DNA of 37,104 nt from positions 1 through 37,104 of the IMG/VR virus record IMGVR_UViG_3300045988_090832, one strand, 5' to 3'. Origin of the DNA: a virus. Shown here one piece after another: positions 3,473-37,104 of this stretch (position 1 is its first letter; every line of letters begins with the position of its first letter). The notes below the pieces were generated by a model, which was not told the DNA's origin, searched no databases, and worked only from the letters and a program-made list of their open reading frames with translations. The position numbers and the translations under genes were made by a program.

Positions 3473-6400
3473 ATGAGTTTTTACAGCGATTACGAGAAGA
3501 AGAAAAACAAGAACAAAACGTCCGCGCTGCTGAAGGTGCCGCAGGTTGTGCCGCAGAAGCCGGCAAAGCAGGACAACAGCCGCCGTGCAACGGCGGCGCG
3601 CAACGGAGAACAGCAGCGCGTGCAGGCACACCAGAATGCACATCGGCCTGCAAGCACTTATCTGACCGGCGGCAGCACGACAAGAAGTCAGCCGTATGCG
3701 GCTTCTCAGCAGCGGAACACTGTTTTTCAGCAACGAGGGAACACACGGCAGGGCTTTCCCGGCACAGGCAGTCGGAGCACGCAGCAGAACAACTTACGGC
3801 AGCCTGCAAGCACCTATCTGACCGGCGGCAGCGTGACAAGAAGTCAGCCGTATGCGGCAAGTCAGCAGAATCAGCTGTTTTCAGCGAGGAAGGCGGCGGA
3901 GCAGCGGCGTAATCCGCGGCAGAACGTGTCTACTGCGAACAAGAGCAGCGGCGTCGGCAACCCGACGCTGACGCAGTTTCTCAAGAACTCTATGGACTGG
4001 CACACGACCAGCGATCCGAACAGGAAGGCACAGCTGCACGCGCAGAACGACGCCTTGCGGCGCAAGCTCGGTTATGACTACAACCCGCAGACCGGCGCCT
4101 CTTTTGATAAGTACGGCCACGAAATGACTGCCGGCGTGCGCATGGCCTACGGCAGCAAGCCGACCGAACGGCTGAATCAGGCAACTAAGTTGCTGCATAC
4201 CTCGGGCGTGATGGGCAAGACAGACAAGGCAACCGTCTACCCGACCGCCATGCAGGCGGCACAGGGACTGGATGAGGACTATTTCAGCGGTCAGACCGGA
4301 TATAATGCACACAAGACGATGCATGACCTGTTTAACCGCTCGGATGAGACGTGGAGCAGCGAGGACACACAGAGCCGCGACAGGGCCCGTCAGGAGCTTT
4401 CGGACGAGATGAGCCGCATTATGAAGCGGTACGGCCTTACCTATCAGCCGCGCGACAACGCGGATGATATCATGAACCGGCTGAAAGCCGCCGGTGCGGA
4501 CGAAAACACGCTTGCGTATGTGCAGGAAAACATTGATCTGCGGCACGCGGCGGACCGCCTCGGCAACAGCATGGAGGCAGTCGGCAAGCGGTGGATCGCT
4601 TCGCTGCCGTCTCTCGTGGACACCTCGCGTCAGGTGAGCGCGAACGTGGAGGAGAGCCGCCAGAACGAGGAATATCGCCAGCTTGAGGAGCAGGAGCAGA
4701 CACTTGAACTCACCCTGCAGGGCATGAACAGCACAACAGCCGACGGCTCGGTTCCGGCAGACTATCAGGCAGTTTACGATCAGCTGCAGGAGGTCCGCAA
4801 GCGCAAGAACGAGCTGACCGTAAACAAGGGCGTAGACCCAAACAAATGGTCTCAGCGCATGCTGCGCGAGGCGAACGAGGCACAGGCAAACGCCGAGGCC
4901 GGTTTAGCGCCTGCGCCGCGCTGGCTGACCGAACAGGGCATTTCCCTTGCGGGCAATGCGCCGGTGATGGCGGCAAGTGCGATTCCGGGCGTTGGTCCGG
5001 CGGTCGGCTCGCTCGTGATGGGCGCGCAGGCGGCCGGTCAGCGCTCATTTGAGCTGAATGAGCGCGGGATCGGCGCGCGGGAGTCGCTGACGCGAGGGTT
5101 GACCTCGGGTGCGATCGAGGCGGCAACCGAAAGACTGCCGCTCGGTCAGATGAGCAAGATCCTGCACTCCGGCGGCGTGAATGCCGTAAAAAATATCCTC
5201 ATCCAGATGGGTGAGGAGGCGACAGAGGAAAGCGCAAGCTATTTCCTCAACTATGTTGCGGATAAGGCGGCGCAGGATCCGGACGCAAAGTTCAGCCTGC
5301 AGGAGCTTGCCCAGAGCGCCGCAGGCGGCGCGTTCGGCGGCTTGGTGTTTGGTACGGCGGGTGCGGTCGGTTCGAGAGCGGCAACAGATACGGAGCGTAT
5401 GAATGCCGCTGATGCATACGATTACAATCAGGTGCAGCAGCTTGTACAGCTCGACAGCGAGCTGCAGGCGGCGCTTAAGCTGCCGGAAGGACCTATTCGG
5501 GAACGTGCGGTGCAGACCGCGCAGGATAAGATGGTAAACGCGCTGACCGATATGCAGCGGCAGAATGCGGCACGGAGTGCTGAGCTGACTGCGAATTATG
5601 ACGCGGATCTGCAGAATCATCTTGATCTGCAGGAAAAGGCCGAGACAGCACAGTACCTGCAGGAGCAGGAAAACAGAGCGCTCAATCAGCGTGCGGCGGT
5701 ACAGGCGATGCAGCAGATGGATACTCAGACGCAGAATAATGTTATCGACCTGCAGGACCGGCTGAACAATGCTTGGACGGAGCTGCAGGAGATCGATCAG
5801 GGAGACGGGCGGCTCTCGGTGGCCGAAATGCAGCGCCGTAATCAACTGATGGACGAAATCCGTCAGTTGAACGCACAGCTGAATGAGCAGGGAGTGAAGA
5901 CCGGCGCTGTTATGCCAGAAATCCAGCAGAATGACATGATTCGCACGGCAGACCGCGGAAACGTGGGCGAGGTGCTGAACCAGAATCCGGACGGCAGTTA
6001 CAATGCGTTTTTCCGAAACAACGAGACCGGCGAGGAAGGTATTCACCGCGTCGAAGCCGAGAACGCACAGCGGATCGCAGAACCGGGCACCTATGAGGTG
6101 GCAAGCGAGCAGCAGCGCGCCGCCGCTGCTGAGGAAGCGCTGAGTCCGTCACTGGACGACTCGGAATATCAGTTTGTGCAGAACCAAAAGGAGCAGGCGA
6201 AGCCGCTCGGCAACTATGAGATGTACGGCAAGACGCCGAAACAGGCGGCACAGGAGCTGCAGGAACAGCTGAACAGTCAGCACTCGTTTGTCTATGAGTC
6301 AGACGAACAGGCGGCACGCCGTGAACAGAACAGCGAGCTGCGCGGCCAGTTTGAGCTTGCACAGCCGGTACGCCGCCAGATGGAGAAATTTAAGAATAAC

Positions 6401-9400
6401 CATCCGCTCAGCGACAAGGACAACAGCTTACTGCAGGGTGCGCTGCTCAACGGTGCAACGGACAAGTTCTCGCAGGCGGACGATCCTGCGGCTGTTATGC
6501 ACATGTACCAGCTGACGCAGGAGGAGCAGCGCCTTATGCAGCCGCTGCGGGAGTATGCACAGGCCCGTCGAGACGCTCTCAGCTTAAGCGCGGAAGAAAT
6601 GGCTGACGCGATTGCAGAGAAAGCAAAGGACAAGCGCATTCCCGGCGCTTACAGCCGTGAGACGATGGAGCGCAACAGTTATGATATTTTCGGCAAGGAA
6701 AACCGCCAGTACGCCGAAACACTCAACGAGCAGTATTTTACGCCGGTGCACAAGGCGGTTGCAGACCGGACACAATACATCAACACGGTAAAGGACCGGA
6801 TCGCAAAGCTGAATTTAAGCAAGCACGAAAGCGCACTTGTGCAGATGATGCTGGAAGGTGAGAACGGTGCCGCTGCGGACTATATCGCGGCGAAGAAAAT
6901 CAAGGTAACGAGCAAGCTGCAGGAACGTGTCGCAAACGGCGTTGCGGAATTCCGCGCCATTTACGACGATATGTACAACAAGCTCTGCGATACCCTGATC
7001 GCAAACGGCATGTGGGACAGTGTGCCGGGATACCTCAAGGACTATGCGCCGCATTTTACTGTAGACAAGCCGGACACCAAACTTGCGCGCGTGCTGTACA
7101 AATTCGGCATTAAGCCGGACAGCACGCTCAATCTTCCGACTCCGATTGCCGGCATTACAGACGACCGCAACCCGGGTAAGAAGTGGTTCGGCAACCTGCT
7201 GCACCGAAACGGTGAACTGACGGAGTTTGACGCGGTGGCCGGGTTTGACCGATATGTAGAGACGGCCGGTGACGTTATCTATCTTACGGACAGCATTCAG
7301 AACCTGCGCACACTGGAGGATGCAATTCGGTATCGGCTTTCCGATGACGGAACCAGGCAGAAAATCAACGAGATTCGCAAAGACCGCACGTTGGATCCAC
7401 TCGAACGCCACCAGCAGACGCAGGACGTTTATGACAAGAATGTTGATGACACGAAAAAGCTGCTCGACCAGAAACACGCGGGCATGGGCGGCTATGTTGC
7501 CAATCTGCACGAGTATATCAATAATTTGGCAGGCAAGAAAGCCCGCGCGGACCGTGGCTGGGAGGAAATGCTCGGACGCCAGATGTACAACGTGGCAAAG
7601 AATGTTGAGGGTAGAGTGGCGGCGAATATGATCGCGCTGAACCCCGGCTCGTGGATCACAAACTTTATTCCGCTCACACAGGCTGCCGGTGAGGTGAGCA
7701 CGCCGAACCTGCTGCGTGCGGCTTACGACACGGTAAAGAGTGCGATTCGGGACGATGGTTTTACGGATGGTTCGGTATTTTTGACCAACCGTGAGGGCAC
7801 GCAGATGCTCGACCGGACGCTGACGCGTAAGGTCTCCGATCTGGCTGGAATGCCGATGGAGGCTATCGACCATTTCACGGCCAACATTGTGACGCGCGGC
7901 AAGTACCTCCAGAACATTGCAGACGGTATGACGGTAAACCAGGCGTTTGAAAATGCCGATGCGTTTGCTTCTAACCTGATGGCGGACCGCTCCAAAGGTG
8001 CACAGCCGACAGCATTTAATGCCGTCAACCCGATTCGCAAGATGTTTACCATGTTCCAGCTGGAGGTCAATAACCAGCTGAGCTACTTAGCAAAGGACCT
8101 GCCGAGGGCCAAGCAGAACAAGGCTGCGCTTGCATGGTCGTACACTAAGATTTTTGCCGGTGCTTATCTGTTTAATCAGGTATACCACCAGCTGACCGGC
8201 CGTGATTCGGCGCTTGACCCGATCGGCATGATCGTTGATGCGTTCGGATTGGACGACGATGACGACAAGGACAAGAAGAAAAAGTCCGGCGTGGACATTG
8301 CGCTTGACCTTGGCGAAAATATTGCGGAACAGATTCCGTTTGTCGGCGGTCTGCTCGGCGGCGGCCGTGTGCCGATCTCCTCGGCCTTCCCGGATTTCGG
8401 CAAGCTGAAAGAGGAATATGAGAACGGCTACGACAACAAGCGCATTGCGCTTGACGCGGCAAAGAGCGCGGCCAACTCGGCGGCGTACCTGCTGCTGCCG
8501 TTCGGCGGCGGTGCTGTAAAGAAGGCGCTTGAGGGCGCGGCAACCGTATATGCGGGCGGCAGCTACAGTCTGGACAAGAACGGCGAGAAGATCCTGCAGT
8601 TCCCGACCTACGGCCAGAGTCCGAGAGATTGGGCGCAGGCTATGCTGTTCGGCAAGTCGTCGCTGCAGGGCGCGCAGGAGTGGGCGGATGATGATTACCA
8701 GAGCCTTAATGCGGACGAGACAAAGGCGTTTGATGAATTGCGTCAGCACATGAACTGGTTCAAGGACGAAAACGGGAACACCATTGACAATTCCGAGGCG
8801 GTGTTTGCGGCTATTAAGGCTATGCGTGCCATTACGGACGAGATGAAAGAAAAGTACCCGGACGATTACACGGCGATTGCTGCAGGCAAGAAACGCGAAA
8901 TGCTGTTTAACGACAACGATCTGAATGAGATTCAGAAAAAGTATCTTGACCGTGAACTGATCGGCAGTTCGGTCGGTGCGTCCGGCGACTACTCCTCCCG
9001 GGATATGTTCGACATCAGCCAGAAGGTGCGCGAGGCCCGTCAAGATGATGCGATGGAGGCACTCAAACACGGAATTTCCGTTGATGAGTTTGCAAACTGG
9101 GACGGCATTATCGAGGAAACGCTTGCGGATAACGAAGTAGATGCAAAGGATTTTGTCGAAGGACAGAATAACGAGCTGTACAAAAAGAATGAGGCACTTT
9201 TGGCAATCCTTAACGAGTACGGTAACAGCGGCGAACACACGGACGCGGAAAAGAACGCGTTTGCGGACTATCTGCTGATCTCTGCTATGGAGGACAGCGA
9301 CAAGGAACGCTGGGACGAGGTAAAGGGTACGGTAAACGCGACCGACTTTGTGAAGTTTGCAAGCGACATGACGACGTACAACAAGGAGTACAAAGGTTCC

Positions 9401-10483
9401 GGACTGAGCAAGAGCGACGCTATGCAGTCGATCCTTGACGGTTACAAGAACCTTTCCGACACGCAGAAGGACGCGCTTTTTGGCGTGTACAGCGACAGTG
9501 CGTCCGGCAATGCGTTCCATATCTCCAAGTATGAGGAGGCTATTAAGGACAATTCGTTCTACTCTTGCCTCAAGGACGCAGGCAAGAAGGAGCTGCGCTC
9601 ACTGCTCAACAGCTACGAGAAACATGTGGCGGATAACGCCAAGCTGGACGACTGGGAGGCCAAGGCGGCCGTTGCCAAGGAGGCCGGTATTTCGCCGGGC
9701 ATTTACGCGTTGTTCCAGGTCGCGCTGCAGGAGGCGGACACGGACGGCAAGGGATTGAGCCAGGCAAAGGCCAAGGCGGCCGTTGAGTCGGTCGGCGGTC
9801 TGACACAGGCACAGAAAGCGTATTTGTGGCAGAGCGCAAACAAGAGTTGGAAAAAGAACCCCTACGGCTCGGCGACGGTTTCCGAGTATAAGTATGCAGG
9901 CGGCGAGTTTGCAAACCCGGTTGCGGGCGGCACGATCTCCAGCAAGTTTGGTCCGCGTGACACGTTCGCGACAAGCAACGGTGCCTCGTCCTCGCGCTGG
10001 CACAAGTCGATCGACATTGCCGCGCCTGCCGGTACGGCGATTAAGTCGGTTCAGGGCGGCAAGGTAACCGCAAACGGCTGGGTCTCCGGTTACGGTTGGA
10101 CGATCGAGGTTACGCATGATAACGGCTATGTGAGCATGTACCACCACATGCAGAATCAGAGCAGTGTTGCGGTCGGCACGGAAGTAAAACAGGGGCAGAC
10201 GATCGGCAATGTCGGCAGCACCGGCAATTCGACCGGTCCGCACCTCGATCTGACGATCACCAAGGACGGCACGCCGGTGGATCCTGCGTCGCTGATTGGC
10301 GATTACAAGAACGCAAAGACGGGGTATGTTTACGAGGGTTCGCCGGTTTATACGCAGCTGTCCTCGGCGGCAAGCAAGAGCAAAAAGAGTTCCGGCGGGT
10401 CGAGTAGGTCGAGTGGCGGAAGCAGTTCCGGCGGTTTGAAGCAGCTTAAGGGACTTAGTGGTTTGAAAGGATTGGGATTCTGA
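3473..10483 (+). CDS. Giant 2336-aa multidomain protein with C-terminal M23 peptidase (candidate polyvalent, ejection or tail-associated lysin protein)
   Basis: Uninterrupted ORF with RBS TAGGAGG. Has Q-rich N-terminal repeats, long coiled-coil stretches and Gly-rich hydrophobic segments (e.g. GNAPVMAASAIPGVGPAVGSLVMGAQAAG, AAGGAFGGLVFGTAGAVG). The C-terminus carries an M23 domain and a G/S-rich tail. Confidence 0.9.
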   Translation: MSFYSDYEKKKNKNKTSALLKVPQVVPQKPAKQDNSRRATAARNGEQQRVQAHQNAHRPASTYLTGGSTTRSQPYAASQQRNTVFQQRGNTRQGFPGTGSRSTQQNNLRQPASTYLTGGSVTRSQPYAASQQNQLFSARKAAEQRRNPRQNVSTANKSSGVGNPTLTQFLKNSMDWHTTSDPNRKAQLHAQNDALRRKLGYDYNPQTGASFDKYGHEMTAGVRMAYGSKPTERLNQATKLLHTSGVMGKTDKATVYPTAMQAAQGLDEDYFSGQTGYNAHKTMHDLFNRSDETWSSEDTQSRDRARQELSDEMSRIMKRYGLTYQPRDNADDIMNRLKAAGADENTLAYVQENIDLRHAADRLGNSMEAVGKRWIASLPSLVDTSRQVSANVEESRQNEEYRQLEEQEQTLELTLQGMNSTTADGSVPADYQAVYDQLQEVRKRKNELTVNKGVDPNKWSQRMLREANEAQANAEAGLAPAPRWLTEQGISLAGNAPVMAASAIPGVGPAVGSLVMGAQAAGQRSFELNERGIGARESLTRGLTSGAIEAATERLPLGQMSKILHSGGVNAVKNILIQMGEEATEESASYFLNYVADKAAQDPDAKFSLQELAQSAAGGAFGGLVFGTAGAVGSRAATDTERMNAADAYDYNQVQQLVQLDSELQAALKLPEGPIRERAVQTAQDKMVNALTDMQRQNAARSAELTANYDADLQNHLDLQEKAETAQYLQEQENRALNQRAAVQAMQQMDTQTQNNVIDLQDRLNNAWTELQEIDQGDGRLSVAEMQRRNQLMDEIRQLNAQLNEQGVKTGAVMPEIQQNDMIRTADRGNVGEVLNQNPDGSYNAFFRNNETGEEGIHRVEAENAQRIAEPGTYEVASEQQRAAAAEEALSPSLDDSEYQFVQNQKEQAKPLGNYEMYGKTPKQAAQELQEQLNSQHSFVYESDEQAARREQNSELRGQFELAQPVRRQMEKFKNNHPLSDKDNSLLQGALLNGATDKFSQADDPAAVMHMYQLTQEEQRLMQPLREYAQARRDALSLSAEEMADAIAEKAKDKRIPGAYSRETMERNSYDIFGKENRQYAETLNEQYFTPVHKAVADRTQYINTVKDRIAKLNLSKHESALVQMMLEGENGAAADYIAAKKIKVTSKLQERVANGVAEFRAIYDDMYNKLCDTLIANGMWDSVPGYLKDYAPHFTVDKPDTKLARVLYKFGIKPDSTLNLPTPIAGITDDRNPGKKWFGNLLHRNGELTEFDAVAGFDRYVETAGDVIYLTDSIQNLRTLEDAIRYRLSDDGTRQKINEIRKDRTLDPLERHQQTQDVYDKNVDDTKKLLDQKHAGMGGYVANLHEYINNLAGKKARADRGWEEMLGRQMYNVAKNVEGRVAANMIALNPGSWITNFIPLTQAAGEVSTPNLLRAAYDTVKSAIRDDGFTDGSVFLTNREGTQMLDRTLTRKVSDLAGMPMEAIDHFTANIVTRGKYLQNIADGMTVNQAFENADAFASNLMADRSKGAQPTAFNAVNPIRKMFTMFQLEVNNQLSYLAKDLPRAKQNKAALAWSYTKIFAGAYLFNQVYHQLTGRDSALDPIGMIVDAFGLDDDDDKDKKKKSGVDIALDLGENIAEQIPFVGGLLGGGRVPISSAFPDFGKLKEEYENGYDNKRIALDAAKSAANSAAYLLLPFGGGAVKKALEGAATVYAGGSYSLDKNGEKILQFPTYGQSPRDWAQAMLFGKSSLQGAQEWADDDYQSLNADETKAFDELRQHMNWFKDENGNTIDNSEAVFAAIKAMRAITDEMKEKYPDDYTAIAAGKKREMLFNDNDLNEIQKKYLDRELIGSSVGASGDYSSRDMFDISQKVREARQDDAMEALKHGISVDEFANWDGIIEETLADNEVDAKDFVEGQNNELYKKNEALLAILNEYGNSGEHTDAEKNAFADYLLISAMEDSDKERWDEVKGTVNATDFVKFASDMTTYNKEYKGSGLSKSDAMQSILDGYKNLSDTQKDALFGVYSDSASGNAFHISKYEEAIKDNSFYSCLKDAGKKELRSLLNSYEKHVADNAKLDDWEAKAAVAKEAGISPGIYALFQVALQEADTDGKGLSQAKAKAAVESVGGLTQAQKAYLWQSANKSWKKNPYGSATVSEYKYAGGEFANPVAGGTISSKFGPRDTFATSNGASSSRWHKSIDIAAPAGTAIKSVQGGKVTANGWVSGYGWTIEVTHDNGYVSMYHHMQNQSSVAVGTEVKQGQTIGNVGSTGNSTGPHLDLTITKDGTPVDPASLIGDYKNAKTGYVYEGSPVYTQLSSAASKSKKSSGGSSRSSGGSSSGGLKQLKGLSGLKGLGF
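3647..3868 (+). repeat. Two 66-nt direct repeats (3647..3712 and 3803..3868) inside the giant gene
   Basis: CCTGCAAGCAC(T/C)TATCTGACCGGCGGCAGC(AC/GT)GACAAGAAGTCAGCCGTATGCGGC...CAGCAG appears twice, 156 nt apart. It encodes PASTYLTGGS(T/V)TRSQPYAASQQ twice. Confidence 0.9.
9914..10293 (+). other. M23 (LytM/lysostaphin-type) peptidase domain of the giant protein
   Basis: NPVAGGTISSKFGPRD...WHKSIDIAAPAGTAI (HxxxD)...GYGWTIEVTHDNGYVSMYHHM...GQTIGNVGSTGNSTGPHLDLTI. The usual HxH is H-L-D here, so one metal-site histidine appears replaced by Asp. Confidence 0.85.
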
Positions 10484-10534: not shown

Positions 10535-10586
10535 AAACCTATAACATTTTATGCTTTGACAGCAATAACTTAAATGTTAGAGGTTT
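10535..10586. other. Candidate attP for the large serine integrase (52-bp imperfect dyad)
   Basis: AAACCTATAACATTT (10535..10549) and its inverted copy AAATGTTAGAGGTTT (10572..10586) match at 14 of 15 positions. They flank 22 bp and overlap the int stop codon. Size and outer-arm symmetry resemble known serine-integrase attP sites. Not verified. Confidence 0.35.
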
Positions 10587-12114
10587 GAGGTATAGCAATT
10601 TTGGGGTGGATTGTCAGATGGAGGTCGCTTTTGGCTTTGCCGTAGACACGGACGGTTTTATGGTAGTCTATACGGCGGATTACCTGCTTTAAGAGAAGAT
10701 TTTGTTCTTTTGGATCTTCCAGTGTAGGGTATACGTCCAGCACATGACGGATGAGTGGCGCGGAGTTCTTCTGCGCTTCAATGTCTGTCTGTTTATTATG
10801 GAGTTTGCGCTCGATCTCGTGCTTTGTGTTTAGCAGTGCGGTCTGATCCTGGCTGATTGCGGATTGACGCTGCAGAAAGGTTTCCTTACTGTAAACACCA
10901 TCTTCGAGCAGTTCATAGGTACGCTGCAGACGGCGGTTTATATCGGTAAGCTGCTTCTCGATATTCTGCAGTGCGATTTCTTCGCTTTTCGTGTCCAGAA
11001 GGGCAGGAGAGCTGAGTTCGATCTCGTGAAGAAATTCGCGGAGAGACTGCAGGACAAGGCTTTCCACATCTTCAAACAGACTGGAGACGGTAGAGCAGGA
11101 CGGATTTTCACAGCCAAACCGGACTTTATCTTCACGGCGGTATGGATGGCGAGACATCAGTTTACCGCATTGGTCGCAGTAGACCAGTCCGGCCAGCGGA
11201 TTCATCTGCTGGTATTTGCGCGGTACACGCGGCGTAACGGTGTCTTTCATGCGCTGTTGGACGCTGTACCAGACGTCCCGCGGGATGATCGCTTCGTGTA
11301 TTCCTTCGTACAGCTCACAGTTTTTATTGACCGGTCGCTTGGTTATCAATTTGCCTTTTTGCACGATTTTTGTGTTGACCTTCATGGCACTGGGGATAAA
11401 ACCGGCATAGTGCGGGTTCTGCAGGATGGCACGGGTAGTCGCGGGCACCCATTTTTTATCGAGCGGTGTGCGGATCTTCATAGCGTTCAATTCGTTTGCG
11501 ATTTCGGAAAAGCCTTTGCCGGAAAGATACATATCGTAGATGGTGCGGATCACACCGGCCTGCGGCTCAACCGGTCGAAGGGACCAGCCACGGCCGTCCA
11601 GTTTGTAGCGTTCATAGCCGTAAGGCGGACGTCCGGGAACGTAGTGGCCTTCTTTCTTGGAGGCTCTCGTTCCGGCCAGCTGACGGCGGCGTATCATTCT
11701 ATACTCCTGGCGCGACATGAACAGGCCGAACTCCATCCACTCCTCATCCGCCTCCTGCGTGGGGTCGTAGGTTTTGGACGGCGTGACGATCAGTGTGCCC
11801 GAAAACTTAAACGCTTGGGCGACGATACCCTGATCTATGGTATCGCCGCGCGCAAGACGCGAGGTTTCGGTTACGAGGACGCCCTTCCAGCGGCCATCCT
11901 CCACCTCGGAGAGAAGCTGCTGCATGACGGGACGGTTCGCAATGCGCTCACCGGAGACGATCTCACGGTATATCGCGCCGATCGGCAGGGCGCGGGACTT
12001 GGCAAGCTCCATGAGGATATGCTCGTGCCGGGCGAGGGTATCGCCTTCGCCGTGGGCCTCGGCTTCGAGGTCGGCACGGGATTTGCGTAAATAGATGGCA
12101 TACTCGGTGGACAT
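10570..12114 (-). CDS. int: Large serine recombinase (phage integrase)
   Basis: N-terminal resolvase catalytic domain (YAIYLRKSRAD...GDTL..., VTETSRLARGD). Followed by a recombinase domain (PPYGYER...) and a zinc-ribbon region (CDQCGKLMSRH...FGCENPSC) with a coiled-coil tail. Start taken at MSTEY (ATG 12114), preceded by GGAAGTGA. Confidence 0.9.
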   Translation of the reverse strand: MSTEYAIYLRKSRADLEAEAHGEGDTLARHEHILMELAKSRALPIGAIYREIVSGERIANRPVMQQLLSEVEDGRWKGVLVTETSRLARGDTIDQGIVAQAFKFSGTLIVTPSKTYDPTQEADEEWMEFGLFMSRQEYRMIRRRQLAGTRASKKEGHYVPGRPPYGYERYKLDGRGWSLRPVEPQAGVIRTIYDMYLSGKGFSEIANELNAMKIRTPLDKKWVPATTRAILQNPHYAGFIPSAMKVNTKIVQKGKLITKRPVNKNCELYEGIHEAIIPRDVWYSVQQRMKDTVTPRVPRKYQQMNPLAGLVYCDQCGKLMSRHPYRREDKVRFGCENPSCSTVSSLFEDVESLVLQSLREFLHEIELSSPALLDTKSEEIALQNIEKQLTDINRRLQRTYELLEDGVYSKETFLQRQSAISQDQTALLNTKHEIERKLHNKQTDIEAQKNSAPLIRHVLDVYPTLEDPKEQNLLLKQVIRRIDYHKTVRVYGKAKSDLHLTIHPKIAIPQTSNI

Positions 12115-12118
12115 TTTA

Positions 12119-12235
12119 TCACTTCCATTTATTATTCCAGTTATTCCGATCATGGGTGACATGGATAATCACCCAGACTACAAGCAAGGCGATACAGAGC
12201 AAGCCGGTGAGGGTTTCTTTGACAAATGGCGTCAT
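12119..12235 (-). CDS. 38-aa single-TM peptide (hand-called; below the ORF-track cutoff)
   Basis: Minus strand reads GGAGGAATAATT-ATG, giving MTPFVKETLTGLLCIALLVVWVIIHVTHDRNNWNNKWK-stop. Good SD and a hydrophobic core. The stop is 4 nt before the int ATG. Confidence 0.4.
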   Translation of the reverse strand: MTPFVKETLTGLLCIALLVVWVIIHVTHDRNNWNNKWK

Positions 12236-12767: not shown

Positions 12768-12804
12768 GCCGTTGTCAGGTGCGTTCTGACAGCGGCTTTT
12801 CTTT
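12768..12804 (+). terminator. Plus-sense intrinsic-terminator-like hairpin inside the minus-sense lysogeny operon
   Basis: GCCGTTGTCAG-GTGCGTT-CTGACAGCGGC followed by TTTTCTTT on the + strand. The T.G pair is a valid wobble only in a + strand RNA. On the minus strand there is no T tract. Confidence 0.4.
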
Positions 12805-13174
12805 ATGCCTGTTGATCCACTGCAGGCTCATCACGTTTTTTATATCGGGGGTTTCCTTTCAGGTCTGCGACGTACTCGCGGACCTTTTCTTTTCCCTCAT
12901 CGTTGAATGAGCGGTAGTCCGTGACAAGCTGCTGCTCGTCTGGTGGCGCCTGCGTGTACGCATTCGGGCTTTCCTCGAACATTTCAGAAAATGAGATGTT
13001 CAAAATTCTACATAATTGATTCAGGAGTTCGATGTTCGGTGTGTTTACTCCTTTGATCCAGTTTGTAACCGTTGGCTTTGATACGCCGAGCATTCGGGCG
13101 ATTTCAGCCTGCGTATAATCTGACCCTTTTATATAGCGTGCAACGTTGCGCTGTACAGTTTCTCGTATTTCCAT
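12803..13174 (-). CDS. XRE/CI-like HTH repressor
   Basis: ...YTQAEIARMLGVSKPTVTNWIKGVNTPNIELLNQLCRILNISFSEMF is a classic HTH_3 domain. RBS AAAGGAGGTG lies 8 nt before ATG 13174. Divergent from a Cro-like gene. Confidence 0.85.
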   Translation of the reverse strand: MEIRETVQRNVARYIKGSDYTQAEIARMLGVSKPTVTNWIKGVNTPNIELLNQLCRILNISFSEMFEESPNAYTQAPPDEQQLVTDYRSFNDEGKEKVREYVADLKGNPRYKKRDEPAVDQQA

Positions 13175-13203
13175 TGGTTTCACCTCCTTTCTCTTTTGAG
13201 TTA

Positions 13204-22302: not shown

Positions 22303-22345
22303 TCAAGAATACAACTTTACAAAACATCAACAAGGAGTGGATAAC

Positions 22346-22936
22346 ATGGCAAACGGAGCAAAATTAGCGTATGTGCGCGTATCGACTGAGGAACAGAACG
22401 AGGCGCGGCAGGTGGAAGCCTTGAAGCAGTATGACATTGACAAGTGGTTTATCGAGAAGGTGAGCGGCAAGGATATGAACCGCCCGAAGCTGCGGGAAAT
22501 GCTGGACTATGCCCGAGAGGGCGATACAATCTACATCCACGACTTTTCCCGTATCAGCCGAAGCGTTGCTGACCTGATGACGCTGACCAAGGATTTACAG
22601 GAACGCGGCATCCATCTGAAAAGCAACAAGGAGGGCTTTGACACCATGACCCCTATGGGGCGTGCGATGATCGGCTTTATTGCGATCATCAATCAGTTTG
22701 AGCGGGAAAACATGCTTGAACGCCAGCGGGAGGGAATCGAGATCGCCAAGCGCGAGGGCAAGTATAAGGGACGCAAAAAAACCGAGATTGCAGACATGGC
22801 GGGTGTATATTATGACTGGGTGACACGACACAAGAGCAAGGCAACGCTCGCACGGGAGCACGGCATCAGCAGACCGACCTTAGACCGGCTGCTTAAGGAA
22901 TACGAGCAGGAGTTTGTTGCAAAATCGAATAGCTGA
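22346..22936 (+). CDS. Small serine recombinase (resolvase/invertase family)
   Basis: AYVRVSTEEQNEARQ...GDTIYIHDFSRISRS...FERENMLERQREGI...C-terminal HTH (ATLAREHGISRPTLDRLL). About 196 aa. AAGGAG lies 9 nt upstream of ATG 22346. Confidence 0.9.
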   Translation: MANGAKLAYVRVSTEEQNEARQVEALKQYDIDKWFIEKVSGKDMNRPKLREMLDYAREGDTIYIHDFSRISRSVADLMTLTKDLQERGIHLKSNKEGFDTMTPMGRAMIGFIAIINQFERENMLERQREGIEIAKREGKYKGRKKTEIADMAGVYYDWVTRHKSKATLAREHGISRPTLDRLLKEYEQEFVAKSNS

Positions 22937-32364: not shown

Positions 32365-33399
32365 ATGACGTTTGATGAAAGCAAAATTTCAGCCGAAAAG
32401 GCGGCAGAGACCGGCGTGCAGAGCCAGCCGGACGCGCTGACCGGCTCGGCCGAGGAAAACAAGAAGGTTTTTGATCTGCTGCCGCTGCTTATTATCGAGA
32501 GGCTTAACAAGCTGATCGAGGCATTGCAGGCCGCAAACAGCGCCGGACAGATCGGCGCCGCGGCGTTCCCCAACGTGGCCGGCTGCTCGGTTCAGGAGCA
32601 GCTGCAGATCATTCAGAAGAACCTCGAGGACTACCGGGACGCGGTAAAGGTGAACGGCGCGGAAAACGTCGGCATGACACCGTTTGACGGCGTGAACGCA
32701 AACACCGTGCAGGCGGCGCTCGAGCAGCTGCAGGCAAACCTTGTGCAGTATATCAATACTGTTAAATCCGCAGAGGGCGCGGGCAGGGTCGGCATTACGC
32801 CGTTCAAGGGCGTGACGAGCGGGACCGTGCAGGCTGCACTTGAGGAAATCCGCAGACAGATCGACGATGTAACGGCGGGCGTTATCCCGGACTACGGCGT
32901 CACCACTATCAAGCTGGCGCTGCAGGCCGTGACGGCGGACAGGCTGGCGCAGGATGTGCTTGATATGATCGAGGCCGCAGAGCCGGCACGCAGCACCAAC
33001 GAGCTGGACGATTACACAATGGAGACCGGCCGCTTTGTCAACGCCGGTGCGGGATGGAACACCTTCCGGTTCCGGCATGCGTTTGAGGGCGTGCCGGTCC
33101 TGACGGTGACGCCGAAGGAATTCAGCGGTTTTTGCGAGATTAAGAACGTGACTGCGGAAGGATTCCTCTATTGCCTGCGTCAGCCGAGTTTGCAGGGCGG
33201 CAGTGCGACGAAGGGCACGGTGACAACGGCTACCGGCTATATCGGCTCGGACACCGGCTCGTCACCCAGTCACAGTCAGATCACCTATGTTTCCGGTGTG
33301 ACGCTGCCGCAGGTCGTTCTGCCGACGCTCGGCACGATTACAACGGCAGAGAAGATCGAAATGGATTATATCGCTATTGAGTTTGGAGGTGACGAGTAA
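32365..33399 (+). CDS. Tail fibre/receptor-binding protein with three internal repeats and a possible H-type-lectin-like C-terminal domain
   Basis: A threefold motif appears: IGAAAFPNVAGCSVQEQLQIIQKNL, VGMTPFDGVNANTVQAALEQLQANL and VGITPFKGVTSGTVQAALEEIRRQI. The C-terminal GWNTFRFRHAFEGVPVLTVTPKEFSGFCEIKNVTAEGF resembles H-lectin-type domains. Confidence 0.6.
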   Translation: MTFDESKISAEKAAETGVQSQPDALTGSAEENKKVFDLLPLLIIERLNKLIEALQAANSAGQIGAAAFPNVAGCSVQEQLQIIQKNLEDYRDAVKVNGAENVGMTPFDGVNANTVQAALEQLQANLVQYINTVKSAEGAGRVGITPFKGVTSGTVQAALEEIRRQIDDVTAGVIPDYGVTTIKLALQAVTADRLAQDVLDMIEAAEPARSTNELDDYTMETGRFVNAGAGWNTFRFRHAFEGVPVLTVTPKEFSGFCEIKNVTAEGFLYCLRQPSLQGGSATKGTVTTATGYIGSDTGSSPSHSQITYVSGVTLPQVVLPTLGTITTAEKIEMDYIAIEFGGDE

Positions 33400-35096
33400 T
33401 GCTCAAGAAGATTCAGCAGGATTTCAGCTATTACTCGCATGAGTTTAAGGATAACTACCGAAAAGGCGTACACCGTCTGCGCACCATCCTTGCCAGCAGG
33501 GCACAGGCACAGGCGTTTGTAAGCAATGCGGGCGGCACTGCGGTGGTGCTCGGCTATGAGCCGAGCGCGCCGGATAAAAACGCACAGGAACTGTATGCGC
33601 TGCTTGCGGCTTCGCCGTATATCGACGATGCGGTGCAGACGTTTTTGGGGAGCATTTACGAGGCGGGCGCGGAAAGCCAGGATGCGATGTATTCGGATAG
33701 TGCCCGCTGTCTGGAAATCCTGCACGATCCAGTAATGGCCCGTGCCGCAGGCGCAGGCGCGGTAAGCGCCGGAAAATGGATCGCAACTCTGGCGGGACAG
33801 AGTTGCAATTTGTACAGGGATATGAACGCGGTTGCCGCCAGCGATATCGCTATGACGGCAGTGGCTGCAAGTGAGACTGCAATGGCGGCTGTCGTCAGCA
33901 ACGCGACGGCGCTTAACGCTGTTGTAACTTCTCATGTTGCACTCAATGCTGTTGCCGCAAGCGAGACTGCGATGGCGGCTGTCATCGGCAACGCAACGGC
34001 GCTCAATGTTGTTGCAACCTCTCAGGCTGCGATGAACGCGGTAGCTGCAAGCGAAACTGCTATGACGGCGCTCATTGCAAACACCGCAGCGTTCAATACG
34101 GTGGTGACTTCTCATGTAGCGATGAACGCGGTAGCTTCGTCCTATGTGGCTGTGGCCGCAGTCTACGAGAGCGCGGTTGCGGTTGAAGCTGTCAAGGCAA
34201 ATGAAACAGCCTGGGCTACCCTTACGGGAGCGTCCAGCGCAGTTATGGGCAAGGCCGCGGCGAAGCTGGCCGGTTTGAATCCGGCGGACTATGCCGACAT
34301 GACGGCGATTGCGTCGTCCTCGACCGCTATGGCGGCGATTGCAGCGTCCCAGACCGCTATGGCGGCGATTGCAGCGTCCCAGACCGCTATGGCGGCGATT
34401 GCATCGTCTTCGACCGCTATGGCGGCTGTGGCTGCGTCCTATGTTGCCGTGGCTGCTGTCTACGGGAGCGCGGTTGCAGTTGATGCCGTCAAGGCCAATG
34501 AAACAGCCTGGGCGACCCTCGCGGGAGCGACCAGCGCAGTCATGGGCAAGGCCGTGGCAGTCCTTTCTGGCCTCAACCCGGACAGCTATGCCGACATGAC
34601 GGCCGTAGCGTCGTCCTCGACCGCTATGGCGGCTATTGCATCGTCCCAGACCGCTATGGCGGCGGTGGCAGCGTCCCAGACCGCTATGGCGGCGATCATC
34701 GCAAACAGTACAGCGCTCAATGCTGTGGTATCGTCGTCGGCTGCCATGTCCGCAGTAGCGGCATCTCAGACCGCTATGGCGGCTATTGCAGCGTCGAGTA
34801 CAGCTTTGAGTGCTATTGCTGCCAGCACAACGGCTTTAGATGCACTTTATGCGAAGAAAAAACGCATGAGTGGTGCCAGCGCAAGCCTGTCCGGCAAGTT
34901 TATTATTCTTCAGATTAGCAACGATAACGCTTTCGATACGTCTCAGTACGGATATGCCACCCTGTCCGATGGCAGCAAGCCGAATTGGGGTAGCTATAAG
35001 GATAAATATGCTTACTTTAAGCAGTACAAAAAGATTGCTACCTACATGAAGAATGATACTGATAGCAATGATTGGATCGACTATTTTCAGTGCTGA
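33399..35096 (+). CDS. Tail fibre with decapeptide-repeat shaft and the currently expressed C-terminal tip
   Basis: TAATG overlap with the upstream fibre gene. About 330 aa of 10-residue repeats (V-A-A-S-x-T-A-M-x-A type). The AT-richer C-terminal globular part is ...GKFIILQISNDNAFDTSQYGYATLSDGSKPNWGSYKDKYAYFKQYKKIATYMKNDTDSNDWIDYFQC. Confidence 0.75.
   Translation: MLKKIQQDFSYYSHEFKDNYRKGVHRLRTILASRAQAQAFVSNAGGTAVVLGYEPSAPDKNAQELYALLAASPYIDDAVQTFLGSIYEAGAESQDAMYSDSARCLEILHDPVMARAAGAGAVSAGKWIATLAGQSCNLYRDMNAVAASDIAMTAVAASETAMAAVVSNATALNAVVTSHVALNAVAASETAMAAVIGNATALNVVATSQAAMNAVAASETAMTALIANTAAFNTVVTSHVAMNAVASSYVAVAAVYESAVAVEAVKANETAWATLTGASSAVMGKAAAKLAGLNPADYADMTAIASSSTAMAAIAASQTAMAAIAASQTAMAAIASSSTAMAAVAASYVAVAAVYGSAVAVDAVKANETAWATLAGATSAVMGKAVAVLSGLNPDSYADMTAVASSSTAMAAIASSQTAMAAVAASQTAMAAIIANSTALNAVVSSSAAMSAVAASQTAMAAIAASSTALSAIAASTTALDALYAKKKRMSGASASLSGKFIILQISNDNAFDTSQYGYATLSDGSKPNWGSYKDKYAYFKQYKKIATYMKNDTDSNDWIDYFQC
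33831..34830 (+). repeat. In-frame 30-nt periodic repeat array, including a 297-nt tandem duplication (34134..34430 vs 34431..about 34667)
   Basis: Successive 30-nt units begin GTTGCC/GTGGCT/GTCGTC... and each encodes one decapeptide. The two long units encode VASSYVAVAAVYESAVAVEAVKANETAWATL... and VAASYVAVAAVYGSAVAVDAVKANETAWATL... Confidence 0.85.
34619..34663. repeat. IR-L: left 45-bp inverted repeat inside the tail-fibre gene
   Basis: GACCGCTATGGCGGCTATTGCATCGTCCCAGACCGCTATGGCGGC. Its reverse complement occurs at 35777..35821 with a single mismatch (G34629 vs A). Confidence 0.9.
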
Positions 35097-35103
35097 GCAA
35101 GGA

Positions 35104-35259
35104 CGTATTAACATTCTAAGGCGTACCACTTGACCGTTTGCAGGTGTTTTTACCCACTGTTTTCGGCAAGCGGTACGACTGAATGCTTAAAATGTGCATA
35201 AAATACCGGTTCAAACTGAGCTGTAGCGGCTTGTTCGTGCGCATTAGAATGTTAATGCG
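35104..35259. repeat. 20-bp inverted repeat pair (35104..35123 / 35240..35259) downstream of both convergent fibre C-termini
   Basis: CGTATTAACATTCTAAGGCG versus the reverse complement of CGCATTAGAATGTTAATGCG matches at 18 of 20 positions. Each copy lies 8-20 nt after the stop of one C-terminal cassette. Confidence 0.7.
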
Positions 35260-35277
35260 TAGCTGAGAGCTGCTATT

Positions 35278-35814
35278 TTAACAGGGGATATAGGTCACGC
35301 TGGAGGTAGAAGACCACCAGTAAATTGCCAAGGAAGATGTGAAAAATTTCCCCACATTTGTAGTGCCTGCGGGCTGGCTGGTTTGCGCCCCATCCAACTT
35401 GTACCAAGTAGATCCAGCCTCTCCACCGCTGTTTGCGTTGTAGCAACTGATTAGATATCCCATGCCATTGCGGATGGTACGGTTCTCCCAACCGTTTCCG
35501 TTGCCCTTTGTCACGGTTTTTTTCAAAGGGCTGGAGGCAAGGGCGTTCTTTGCTGTTGCAGAGTTCGTGATAGCTGTGCGGGCCGTGTTAGACGAAGCCA
35601 CGGCCGTCATAGCGGTCTGGGATGCAGCTACCGCTGCCATGTTGGCATAGTCTGCCGGCTTCAGACCGGCAGTGCCGACAGCATACTTTGCAGTTGCCAT
35701 GTCGGATGCTGCGATTGCGTCCTTCGCTACCTGCGACTTCTCGATAGCCGCCCTAGCGGTCTGGGACGATGCAACGGCCGCCATAGCGGTCTGGGACGAT
35801 GCAATAGCCGTCAT
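35278..35814 (-). CDS. Silent (promoterless, no RBS) alternative tail-fibre C-terminal cassette in inverted orientation
   Basis: Minus-strand ORF MTAIASSQTAMAAVASSQTARAAI...GLKPADYANMAAVAASQTAMTAV... shares the fibre decapeptide repeats. It then diverges into a different tip (...GNGNGWENRTIRNGMGYLISCYNANSGGEAGSTWYKLDG...IYWWSSTSSVTYIPC). Its ATG is simply the in-repeat Met codon. An in-frame TAG sits exactly at the outer IR boundary and no SD is present. Confidence 0.75.
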   Translation of the reverse strand: MTAIASSQTAMAAVASSQTARAAIEKSQVAKDAIAASDMATAKYAVGTAGLKPADYANMAAVAASQTAMTAVASSNTARTAITNSATAKNALASSPLKKTVTKGNGNGWENRTIRNGMGYLISCYNANSGGEAGSTWYKLDGAQTSQPAGTTNVGKFFTSSLAIYWWSSTSSVTYIPC

Positions 35815-35821
35815 AGCGGTC
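35777..35821. repeat. IR-R: right 45-bp inverted repeat (reverse complement of 34619..34663)
   Basis: The minus strand reads GACCGCTATGACGGCTATTGCATCGTCCCAGACCGCTATGGCGGC. Homology to the fibre gene ends abruptly at 35821/35822. Confidence 0.9.
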
Positions 35822-35900
35822 TAATGCGTCACAAAATGCCCAATTTTTGAGGCTTGGTGTATAATGACTATACATCAAAAATCGAAAGGGGCACGAGCCT

Positions 35901-36884
35901 TTGAACGCAAAAACAGAGCTTGCACAGCGGATTTGCGCAACATTTCCGGGCGATACTCCAATCACCGCCGAGGCGGTGACGGCAATCCTCAAGGACTACA
36001 TTATCATCAAAGACAGCGACGAGCAGCGCAGCGATTTGAACCGGAGAATCAAGTATTATCTCGGTGCAAAACGCATTGACGGGCTGTCGGAAAGGACCTT
36101 GAAGAACTACAAGTACAACCTCGAAATGTTTGCAGAGCGCATGAACAAGAGCGCGGCGAAGATCACCACGGACGATATTCGCGGTTATATCGGGTACCTT
36201 GCGGAGAACCGGCATCTTGCCGAAACCAGTCTGCAAACGCATATCAACACACTGCGGGCGTTTTTCGGGTGGCTGCATATCGAAGAGAAAATCAAGAAGA
36301 ATCCCATGTCAAAGATAAAGTCCTTAAAATTGGACAAGAAGGGTGCCCGCCAGGCGCTGACGGTGGAAGAACTGGAACGCCTGCGCGATGCCTGTCAGGG
36401 CTACCGCGAAAAGGCGCTGGTTGAATTTCTCGTGTCGAGTGGCTGCCGATTGAGTGAGGTCGCACAGCTTAACGTGTCCGATCTTGACCTCATCGGCCGC
36501 ACGGTGCGCGTCACCGGCAAGGGCGATAAGGACCGTGTGGTGTACTTCTCGGTTCGTGCGCGGCTGATGGTGCAGGAGTACATGGTCCAGCGCAAGGGCG
36601 GCGACGGCCTGTTTGTGTCCAGCAAATCGCCCTACGAGCCGCTCAAACCTCGGGCGATACAGCGTATTATCCGCGCGATCAGCGAGAGGGCAGGACTGGA
36701 AAAGCACGTTCACCCGCACCTGCTCCGCCATACCTTTGCGACGCACGCGCTCAACGGCGGCATGGACGTCACTGTTATTCAGAAATTGCTGGGGCATGAG
36801 GACGTATCGACGACGCAGATCTATGCGGAGATGTCGGACGAAACAATAAAGCATCAGTACAATAAATATGTCGCGGCGAACTAA
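35901..36884 (+). CDS. Xer-like tyrosine recombinase (candidate tail-fibre invertase)
   Basis: N-terminal SAM-like core-binding domain (LSERTLKNYKYNLEMFAERM...SLQTHINTLRAFFGWL). Catalytic residues appear in order: SGCRLSEV (R), GKGDKDRVV (K), HPHLLRHTFATH (HxxR), LLGHEDVSTTQIYAE (H, Y). TTG start follows GAAAGGGG. TATAAT lies at 35860..35865. Confidence 0.9.
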   Translation: MNAKTELAQRICATFPGDTPITAEAVTAILKDYIIIKDSDEQRSDLNRRIKYYLGAKRIDGLSERTLKNYKYNLEMFAERMNKSAAKITTDDIRGYIGYLAENRHLAETSLQTHINTLRAFFGWLHIEEKIKKNPMSKIKSLKLDKKGARQALTVEELERLRDACQGYREKALVEFLVSSGCRLSEVAQLNVSDLDLIGRTVRVTGKGDKDRVVYFSVRARLMVQEYMVQRKGGDGLFVSSKSPYEPLKPRAIQRIIRAISERAGLEKHVHPHLLRHTFATHALNGGMDVTVIQKLLGHEDVSTTQIYAEMSDETIKHQYNKYVAAN

Positions 36885-36903
36885 GCCGCGGAAAGGAGCA
36901 CAC

Positions 36904-37104
36904 ATGAAAATCAACGGAATCAAGGCACTGGACTACCAGTGCCAGGGCGACAGTCTGACGCTCGTGCTGTCCGAAACCGACTTTGAAACGGTGTCCGGTC
37001 TGAACACCGCGCTCATCGAGGTCCGCACGGATGACGGCGATTTGGTTGCGGCGCACGGCGGCTATGCGCTGCGTGCCATCACCTACGACAAGGACAAGCA
37101 GACC
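36904..37104 (+). CDS. N-terminal part of the XkdW-like protein (continues at nt 2 after the circular junction)
   Basis: ATG 36904 follows AAAGGAG. MKINGIKALDYQCQGDSLTLVLSETDFETVSGLNTALIEVRTDDGDLVAAHGGYALRAITYDKDKQT..., open to the contig end. Confidence 0.6.
   Translation, partial: MKINGIKALDYQCQGDSLTLVLSETDFETVSGLNTALIEVRTDDGDLVAAHGGYALRAITYDKDKQT
37050..37104. repeat. Second copy of the 55-nt terminal overlap
   Basis: Identical to 1..55. Confidence 0.95.

Follow-up and report, generated by a model that had tools for sequence, protein, structure and literature searches.

The virus record IMGVR_UViG_3300045988_090832 of IMG/VR, analysed here over its whole length of 37,104 nucleotides (nt; hereafter the window), most probably encodes a programmed DNA-inversion switch that swaps the C-terminal, presumably receptor-binding, tip of its tail fibre, and we propose the adjacent Xer-like tyrosine recombinase as the enzyme responsible. 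We regard the switch as real and evidently active in a widespread family of human-gut phages. Comparison of assembled genomes shows that the segment carrying the alternative tips inverts in nature at defined sites, as does a spacer of 114 base pairs (bp) nested within it; in addition, we infer flipping within a population (phase variation) and an effect on host range. The main parts of the system are given below. Loci retrieved for comparison bear L numbers, and a core is a copy of the 15-bp crossover sequence GACCGCTATGRCGGC.

33399..35096, plus strand: expressed tail-fibre gene, an open reading frame (ORF) of 565 amino acids (aa) with an N-terminal anchor, a decapeptide-repeat shaft and C-terminal tip A (type T01)
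34619..34697, plus strand: left inverted-repeat arm, 79 nt, six mismatches against the right arm, with cores at 34619, 34649 and 34679
34784..35096, plus strand: coding part of tip A, AT-richer, ending ..DYFQC
35278..35821, minus strand: silent cassette comprising tip B (type T02, ending ..VTYIPC), preceded by three decapeptide repeats and a linker
35743..35821, minus strand: right inverted-repeat arm with two cores, 35777-35791 and 35807-35821, the latter used in L226
35901..36884, plus strand: Xer-like tyrosine recombinase, the proposed invertase, 327 aa, TTG start

Through the recombinase we retrieved about 110 related loci from IMG/VR, genomes and metagenomes. The strongest evidence for inversion comes from a same-strain set, which we found by searching for exact copies of the recombinase protein. 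Such copies occur in 132 assembly blocks; an identical copy of the neighbouring structural protein (32365..33399) is present in 368. One of these loci, L231, is identical to the window. L225 and L226, which come from other samples, represent the same strain (99.4% nt identity) with the segment inverted. Naming each crossover by the first base of the two core copies involved (the minus copies span 35807-35821 and 35603-35617), the right junction of L226 agrees with the prediction for 34769 x 35807 at 151/151 nt, and that of L225 with the prediction for 34769 x 35603 at 175/175 nt. The left junction of L235 corresponds to 34679 x 35603 at 136/136 nt, and its annotated fibre gene of 539 aa is exactly the predicted fusion. 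Additionally, L237 fits a junction at the 34322 core (133/136 nt). All mapped natural junctions lie within core copies, though the decapeptide repeats provide other homology. The original prediction, made from the letters of the window, had proposed that inverting 34664..35776 would fuse the constant part of the fibre in frame to the other tip; this in-frame fusion indeed occurs in nature, but the exchange is not tied to that interval, as the three pairings demonstrate.

Across the relatives, eight cassette pairs were found in both arrangements. The pair T01|T02 occurs seven times in one arrangement and four times reversed, T01|T03 five against four times, and T01|T04 twice in each. L022 and L024, whose flanks are 98-99% identical, differ by an inverted block of 1176 bp. 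Both tips of the window were also observed in the opposite state: tip A lies in the silent position in L003, L008, L075, L225, L226 and others, and in L008, L075, L093, L096, L234 and L235 the fibre gene continues in frame into the tip B cassette.

These junctions bear on the most sceptical reading, in which there is no switch: the tyrosine recombinase would be an integrase, the cassette a decaying duplicate, and the two orientations assembly artefacts of the inverted repeats. Many contigs do break at the repeats, with the segment often left as a separate contig of about 1 kb, the junctions of L020 and L222 lack tips and look like fold-backs, and a stray recombinase sits in a bacterial chromosome without a fibre gene (L041). 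We nevertheless consider this reading extremely improbable. The longest perfect inverted repeat in the window measures 34 nt, so contigs that span it should resolve the orientation, typical assembly read lengths and the largest k-mer sizes both exceeding that figure. Exact in-frame junctions at different cores were recovered from independent assemblers and samples, the silent cassettes remain intact ORFs across at least 13 tip types, and cassette blocks keep at least 94% identity. The integrase part of the argument is countered by the position of the recombinase inside prophages and by the presence of a probable serine integrase and repressor module, both described below.

Some features of the assemblies deserve description in their own right. 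Many metagenome contigs begin 95-135 nt 5' of the recombinase, within the right repeat arm (L004, L007, L010, L068, L078, L080, L083, L085, L102, L123, L126 and others). We rejected such breaks as a sign of a mixed population, because inverted repeats break assemblies regardless; the systematic break at the repeats could still be used for finding switches of this sort. In L222 (2900-2927) and L020 (~5590-5800), the fibre ORF passes from its plus repeats directly into the inverted boundary site, with neither tips nor spacer between them. The join in L222 consists of TCTTCTACC, GCCGTCATAGCGGTA and TAATGCG in succession, with the break inside the 6-bp centre. These joins are either fold-back assembly artefacts or a true loss of the whole invertible segment. 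In L222 the identical recombinase stands behind Baseplate_J and Mu gp48-like genes, that is, in a different tail module. L041 (6959-8300) holds an 80%-identical recombinase and the following small gene alone in the chromosome of a 'Bulleidia' metagenome-assembled genome, among two-component-system genes and short-chain dehydrogenases, and neither a fibre gene nor inverted repeats occur close by. The pair has the look of a phage remnant, and it was dropped as a clue to function.

The fibre protein matches the profiles PHROG 7809 (tail fiber; 1.2e-31) and PHROG 18723 (unknown function); searches of the fibre and the silent cassette against Pfam and NCBIfam returned no family match. The shaft is built of 30-bp units, each encoding a decapeptide, and this repeat array includes the inverted arms. 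The convergent ORF 35278..35814 on the minus strand (178 aa) begins with the same repeats and continues into an unrelated tip of about 100 aa. For this ORF and the fibre ORF, the coordinates in the original prediction are right, and so are its remarks on composition and ends: GC content is 0.43 in tip A and 0.50 in tip B against 0.60 in the shaft, and Cys terminates both tips. It was likewise correct that the silent copy lacks a Shine-Dalgarno sequence. None precedes the ATG of the cassette, whose sole starts are ATG codons internal to the repeats.

One might instead take the minus-strand ORF for an independently expressed small gene, for example one encoding a fibre accessory protein, since it is intact at its 178 aa, starts with ATG and is annotated by gene callers. 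This seems to us scarcely credible. The ORF has neither a Shine-Dalgarno sequence nor a promoter-like site, its ATG is the Met codon of a TAMAA repeat, its called lengths step by 10 aa (120, 130 ... 170), and full-length fibres of other genomes end in the same sequence.

The tips were typed by comparing, at each locus, the last 70 aa encoded by the expressed and by the silent cassette. At least 13 types exist, and 13 are recurrent, occurring at two or more loci each. Seven of the 13 recurrent types (T02, T06-T09, T13, and T04, the last with three further residues) end in Y-(I/F)-P-C, while being otherwise unrelated in sequence (loci include L003, L009, L012, L029, L101 and the window); the C-terminus of T01 differs and reads Y-F-(Q/P)-C. 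As judged from these sequences, the common C-terminus may be a structural or assembly signal. The tips presumably bind receptors, and the two may differ in adsorption specificity.

Next, we considered the sites at which the exchange takes place. In addition to the cores within the two arms, the following elements were located.

34322..34426, plus strand: four plus cores GACCGCTATGGCGGC, at 34322, 34352, 34382 and 34412, found by exact pattern search
34769..34783, plus strand: last plus core and 5' boundary of the tip A cassette, marked by the junctions of L225 and L226
35603..35617, minus strand: inner minus core and 5' boundary of the tip B cassette, marked by the junctions of L225 and L235
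35822..35830, minus strand: canonical half-site GACGCATTA adjoining the outermost core, the two combining to CGCATTA-GACCGC-TATGACGGC

The core has the layout GACCGC-TATGRCGGC. An exact pattern search of the window found 11 copies, eight on the plus and three on the minus strand, where none is expected, and within the 37-kb genome they are confined to the fibre gene (plus copies) and the silent cassette (minus copies). The shaft carries a tandem duplication of 297 bp (34119-34399 versus 34416-34696, 281 nt aligned at 84% identity), and each duplicated copy ends in a run of cores, giving two plus-core clusters and the extra copy at 34769. All 11 copies share one reading frame. The original prediction had noted that the ATG of its repeat is in frame in both copies, and this can be extended to all 8 x 3 = 24 core pairings, three representative ones of which were translated to intact fusions. 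Since any of the 24 pairings is usable, shaft length changes by steps of 10 aa, and the in-frame copies thereby explain why fibre lengths vary by 10 aa, with fibres of 539, 555 and 565 aa in near-identical strains beside the stepped lengths of the called cassette ORFs.

The functional unit is smaller than first described. A 45-bp repeat had been reported, in which 34619..34663 on the plus strand is the reverse complement of 35777..35821 with one mismatch; the match is real, but the arms are longer (79 nt with six mismatches) and it is the 15-bp core that functions. Gene and cassette share a perfect inverted match of no more than 15-25 nt in about half of 43 loci, and this longest match is or contains the core; the reciprocal pair L021/L026 shares just 16 nt. 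The core is fixed even at synonymous positions (ACC GCT ATG GCG GC), where the upstream repeats vary. Core position 11 is polymorphic (G or A) and travels with the inverted side in L225 and L226, which places the exchange within core positions 1-10. At the recombinase-proximal boundary, about 80 loci agree without exception in CGCATTA-[6 bp]-TATGRCGGC, and the sequence distal to this block diverges. An in-frame TAG had also been pointed out exactly where the homology ends. It is not conserved, as many relatives have TAT there; it forms part of the half-site, CGCATTA followed by G or T. The outer centre occurs in the variants GACCGC, TACCGC, GGTTGC and GACTGC, with left and right matched at each locus except in L066, L069, L071 and L072, which hold two centre types.

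Based on these sites, the recombinase would pair one plus core with one minus core and exchange strands in the first 10 bp of the core, and everything between the paired cores would invert. A constant part of about 310-460 aa would thereby join the other tip in frame, and the old tip would be parked in the silent position.

Nested between the two tips is a second unit, which the original prediction had overlooked.

35103..35124, plus strand: inner site L, ACGTATTA-ACATTC-TAAGGCGT, a dif-like dyad with a 6-bp centre between two arms of 8 bp
35125..35238, no strand assigned: spacer core of 114 bp, which flips independently between the inner sites
35239..35260, plus strand: inner site R, GCGCATTA-GAATGT-TAATGCGT, its centre the exact reverse complement of that of site L

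The inner sites have the general form CGCATTA-N6-TAATGCG, and each lies just 3' of the stop codon of a tip. They are the sole two such sites in the genome, against 0.1 expected. Together with TATGGCGGC, the CGCATTA arms are putative recombinase-binding elements. Among 51 loci the arms are conserved and the centres vary by clade (ACATTC, TCTTCC, ACATCC, TTTCAA), and in every case the right centre equals the left one reverse-complemented. Tyrosine recombinases are expected to use sites of this geometry, in which arms of about 8 bp flank a 6-bp centre matched throughout. L224, of the same strain as the window, differs by a flip of the spacer alone, with junctions as predicted at 132/132 and 128/128 nt. 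In this locus the inner half-sites have moved and the outer ones have kept their positions, so that the crossover must lie within about 14 bp that include the centre. In the proposed mechanism, this second, heterospecific pair of sites, CGCATTA-ACATTC-TAAKGCG after the tip stop codons, would flip the 114-bp spacer by itself.

The orientation of the spacer is split 26:25 among the 51 loci and is independent of the expressed tip. This split ruled out an orientation fixed relative to the expressed gene, as a terminator would need. The spacer does hold a terminator-like hairpin (35127-35146, plus strand) and a long hairpin with z = -4.4, and an Rfam search of 34000-37104 at E <= 1 gave no match. 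A role as a conserved RNA or structure was set aside because the interior differs between clades and only the flanking sites are conserved. The inner flip may be a neutral by-product of having a full site at the 3' end of each cassette.

The tyrosine recombinase starts 80 nt past the right repeat arm, as originally described, and carries the complete catalytic set that had been ascribed to it (R183, K207/K210, H273, R276, H299 and Y308). Its only domains are PF00589 (7e-42) and SAM-like N-terminal domains. It passes the XerA-type model NF040815 of NCBIfam with 255.9 bits against a cutoff of 220, and its best matches in the Protein Data Bank (PDB) are XerA 5HXY, XerA-like 4A8E and XerD 1A0P, with which the catalytic motifs align. 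Upstream of the gene lies one further element.

35831..35900, plus strand: conserved recombinase leader, with TATAAT at 35862-35867 and AAAGGGG before the start codon, both read from the sequence

The 79-nt stretch 35822-35900, of which the leader forms part, is 92-100% identical in relatives whose recombinase genes are 75-94% identical in DNA, and, being more conserved than the gene that follows, it may be a regulatory region. A scan of 33000-37104 for a strict sigma-70 consensus found no promoter.

The genomic distribution of the enzyme follows that of the cassette. A fibre-based scan showed a tyrosine recombinase next to each inverted cassette whose flanks were covered (about 15 bacterial and two haloarchaeal loci, L180 and L184), and 16 loci with a homologous fibre and no recombinase have no inverted cassette. 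Inside prophages, on contigs of 45-154 kb, the recombinase lies between the fibre and the lysis genes and not at the prophage end. Three recombinases, each of a different kind, are encoded by the phage. One of them, a large serine enzyme (10570..12162, minus strand) whose domains are Resolvase, Recombinase and Zn-ribbon, is separated by 640 bp, including one small ORF, from a CI-like helix-turn-helix (HTH) gene (12803..13183, minus strand); from these domains and this arrangement, the two are likely the integrase module for lysogeny. A small serine recombinase of the resolvase/invertase type (22337..22936, plus strand, 199 aa), missed in the original prediction, lies just 5' of the packaging genes and has homologues in some relatives (L045-L062).

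The small serine recombinase offers an alternative catalyst. With its resolvase domain and HTH, and with a size similar to Gin, Hin and Mpi, it could perform the inversion as in Mu, P1 and p15B, leaving the tyrosine recombinase to do something else. The gene is certainly there (PF00239, 1.2e-41, with a weak match to the Mpi family of invertases), at least one relative (the contig of L151/L048) has both the small serine and the tyrosine enzyme, and the inner sites, if read as 12-2-12, have roughly the size of hix or gix. Even so, we judge this assignment highly improbable. The small serine recombinase lies about 11 kb from the segment and its like is never closer than 5 kb to the fibre gene in 79 loci, partner sites agree at all six central bp, rather than at two, in four clade variants, and the module's homologues in haloarchaeal viruses have a tyrosine recombinase. 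A weaker point is that seven module contigs of at least 35 kb were not among the serine-recombinase matches, in a pattern-based and incomplete scan reaching 51% identity. The absence of shared contigs between the two recombinase scans had been taken to mean that the enzymes are not co-inherited; this was withdrawn, as the L151/L048 contig has both. The tyrosine recombinase is favoured because of its co-occurrence with the cassette, its internal position in prophages, the geometry of the sites and the use of such an enzyme by the homologous archaeal module. It is therefore the best candidate for the invertase, as originally proposed, the availability of a serine integrase being in line with this; its role as the catalyst is deduced from gene content and site structure.

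Several points weigh against the proposed switch in this form. All orientation evidence comes from assembled contigs of different samples, whereas phase variation would mean both orientations within one population. The function of the tips is putative, the AlphaFold2 models built from shallow alignments being unusable (mean predicted local distance difference test, pLDDT, 51.5 for tip A and 37.1 for tip B). The phage encodes, as noted, a second invertase candidate. The plus-strand cores lack the CGCATTA half-site, and at least one natural event, 34769 x 35603, paired two cores that are both without it, a difficulty for recognition of the outer sites by the enzyme. The dyad symmetry of the 30-bp unit is weak, with an uninformative best score of 8/15. 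Finally, the matching of the outer centres is supportive and not decisive, as repeated exchange would itself homogenise centres, and the matching of the inner centres between partners could in the same way be a by-product of repeated exchange and not a requirement.

The half-site distribution raises the possibility that the tip swap is RecA-type homologous recombination, with the tyrosine recombinase working on the inner sites only, for spacer flipping, dimer resolution or similar. The arms in the window are indeed long enough to suggest this (92% identity over 79 nt, with a perfect match of up to 136 nt in L003), and the canonical two-armed architecture is confined to the inner sites, the plus cores lacking one arm. 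We think this explanation improbable, though, for several reasons. About half of the loci share merely 15-25 perfect nt, yet reciprocal arrangements occur among them, as in L021/L026; the natural junctions all fall in cores, which are invariant at synonymous positions; the outermost core adjoins a canonical half-site in about 80 loci; and the fibre-based scan never found inverted cassettes without the recombinase. Site-specific inversion at the cores by the adjacent tyrosine recombinase is the reading that we prefer.

The contig is circularly closed, as its positions 1-55 are identical to 37050-37104 (55 bp), and it represents a complete phage of about 37.05 kb that encodes a terminase, a P22-like portal and a major head protein. 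The gene downstream of the recombinase begins at 36905 and runs on at contig position 1. An ORF of 2336 aa (3473-10483, plus strand) has a C-terminal M23 peptidase domain as its sole Pfam match, and its product may be a giant protein that includes a cell-wall hydrolase and is either associated with the virion or ejected. According to the source records, the hosts of the family are Agathobaculum, Butyricicoccus and Faecousia, which are lineages of butyrate producers.

Comparison with known systems revealed precedents in two groups of viruses. The original prediction had regarded the switch as being of an unusual type, a view that needs correction in the light of the Int1 inversion of phiCh1, phiH1 and ChaoS9 and of the Rin shufflon; as a whole, that interpretation is partly supported. 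At the DNA level, the phage collection gave a single match, to a stretch of Halobacterium phage phiH whose annotation reads 'invertible segment involved in tail fiber protein switching'. The fibre shows 45% identity to PhiH1_185 over 171 aa by BLASTP (E 7e-32), including motifs outside the repeats; shared motifs are AVMGK..AGL..DYAD and SQTAM repeats, and the DNA is 71% identical over 136 nt. The silent cassette matches the same protein at 43% over 95 aa (E 2e-16). In phiCh1, phiH1 and ChaoS9, a XerD-type recombinase is flanked by inverted fibre genes with many short repeats (PMC6210493), and the recombinase is reported to invert these genes (PMC6471424; PMC6210493). The two systems have in common opposed fibre genes or cassettes that share clusters of ~30-bp repeats, a tyrosine recombinase, fibres homologous to gp34/gp36 (PhiH1_165/185), and an inversion that swaps fibre 3' ends while repeat number varies. 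They differ in that int1 lies between the two tips (L039, L180, L184), whereas the recombinase here lies outside the segment, past the right arm. Moreover, the recombinase is not an ortholog of Int1 (26% identity over a 66-aa C-terminal motif region; 327 versus 224 aa), and phmmer separates the 'tyr' matches from the 'int1' matches. The haloviral hosts are archaeal, while this phage infects a Clostridia bacterium of the gut. A flipping spacer bounded by dif-like inner sites was found here; in L180, where the repeat scan was not directed at dif-like sites, it showed inverted arms of 268 nt flanking int1, which we read as small ORFs following each fibre gene. Membership in the Int1-type family is thus only partial.

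Bifidobacterium prophages contain the Rin shufflon, reported to be the first case of a tyrosine-family invertase encoded by a phage (PMC6109161); the shufflon recurs in Eggerthella prophages (PMC8778435). Like the module described here, it has an armless Xer-like tyrosine recombinase, separate from the integrase, that adjoins promoterless receptor-binding C-terminal cassettes (PMC6109161; PMC8778435). In both systems a constant N-terminal part is fused to alternative C-termini, the evidence comes from inversions between related prophages, and the hosts are Gram-positive gut bacteria. Rin differs in having three to five tandem Rv cassettes and an 11-bp rix site, TTCCCTAACCC, in place of a single silent cassette; the rix site is absent from the window even at one mismatch. 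Its receptor-binding protein is TP901-1/1358-like and not a repeat fibre. Unlike in Rin, the core here lies within coding decapeptide repeats and offers multiple registers, and a second, heterospecific pair of sites is present.

In the Mu G/Gin, P1 C/Cin and p15B Min systems, inversion exchanges the variable C-terminus of a fibre and hence host range, through an adjacent small serine recombinase, 26-bp sites with a 2-bp crossover and a Fis-dependent enhancer. The outcome here is the same, a C-terminal exchange of the fibre by inversion, but the adjacent enzyme is of the tyrosine type and the sites have a matched 6-bp centre. The R64 shufflon (Rci, sfx, pilV) likewise uses a tyrosine recombinase for switching the C-terminal tips of an adhesin, its target being a conjugative pilus adhesin with several segments instead of a phage fibre. 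The recombinase of the window scores best as XerA-, XerC- or XerD-like. The sfx sites of Rci lack symmetry, the spacer and one of the arms being conserved and the other arm variable; by analogy, the outer sites would resemble them, with a constant GACCGC-TATGRCGGC and a variable left arm. Finally, the two-domain Xer architecture and the inner dyads of 8-bp arms around a 6-bp centre recall Xer/dif. In contrast to Xer/dif, two inverted sites stand 114 bp apart in a phage tail module and give inversion, not dimer resolution, with a single recombinase gene and no FtsK context. We found no description of this Clostridia phage family in the literature, of which our coverage was incomplete, so that its absence is not proven.

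The tips may have moved between phages as whole cassettes. Tips are 94-99% identical in loci whose recombinase genes are just 75-90% identical in DNA. The blocks of high identity extend from 34765 +/- 4 to 35123-35129 for tip A (16 loci) and from 35233 or 35244 to about 35617 for tip B (12 loci), so that their ends coincide with the last core copy and the inner site. Tentatively, the module can be read as a two-site cassette system in which one recombinase would both invert the segment and exchange whole tips between co-infecting phages or prophages. Each tip would have a coding core (centre GACCGC) as its 5' boundary and a dif-like site (centre ACATTC) as its 3' boundary, two classes unable to recombine with each other, and tip exchange would resemble recombinase-mediated cassette exchange or integron-like mobility. 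As part of the same tentative reading, the repeat-embedded site and the fibre scaffold would form an ancient module common to bacterial and archaeal viruses. Homologous recombination in the conserved flanks could yield the same pattern of blocks, so we rate the cassette-exchange reading as rather doubtful. If true, it would explain how at least 13 tip types came to occur in many combinations.

To our knowledge, host-range switching by inversion is barely documented for tailed phages of the dominant anaerobic Firmicutes of the human gut. The compact and apparently self-contained recombinase, with two site classes that are predicted not to cross-react and a 15-bp class tolerated in coding sequence, is a possible tool. 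Through its homology with haloarchaeal viruses, the fibre connects a module of bacterial viruses with one of archaeal viruses. Should host specificity depend on the tips, one prophage would alternate between receptors, with fibre length changing as well, and at least 13 interchangeable tips would circulate among related phages, which would bear on metagenomic host prediction, on strain-level phage-host dynamics and on phage engineering.

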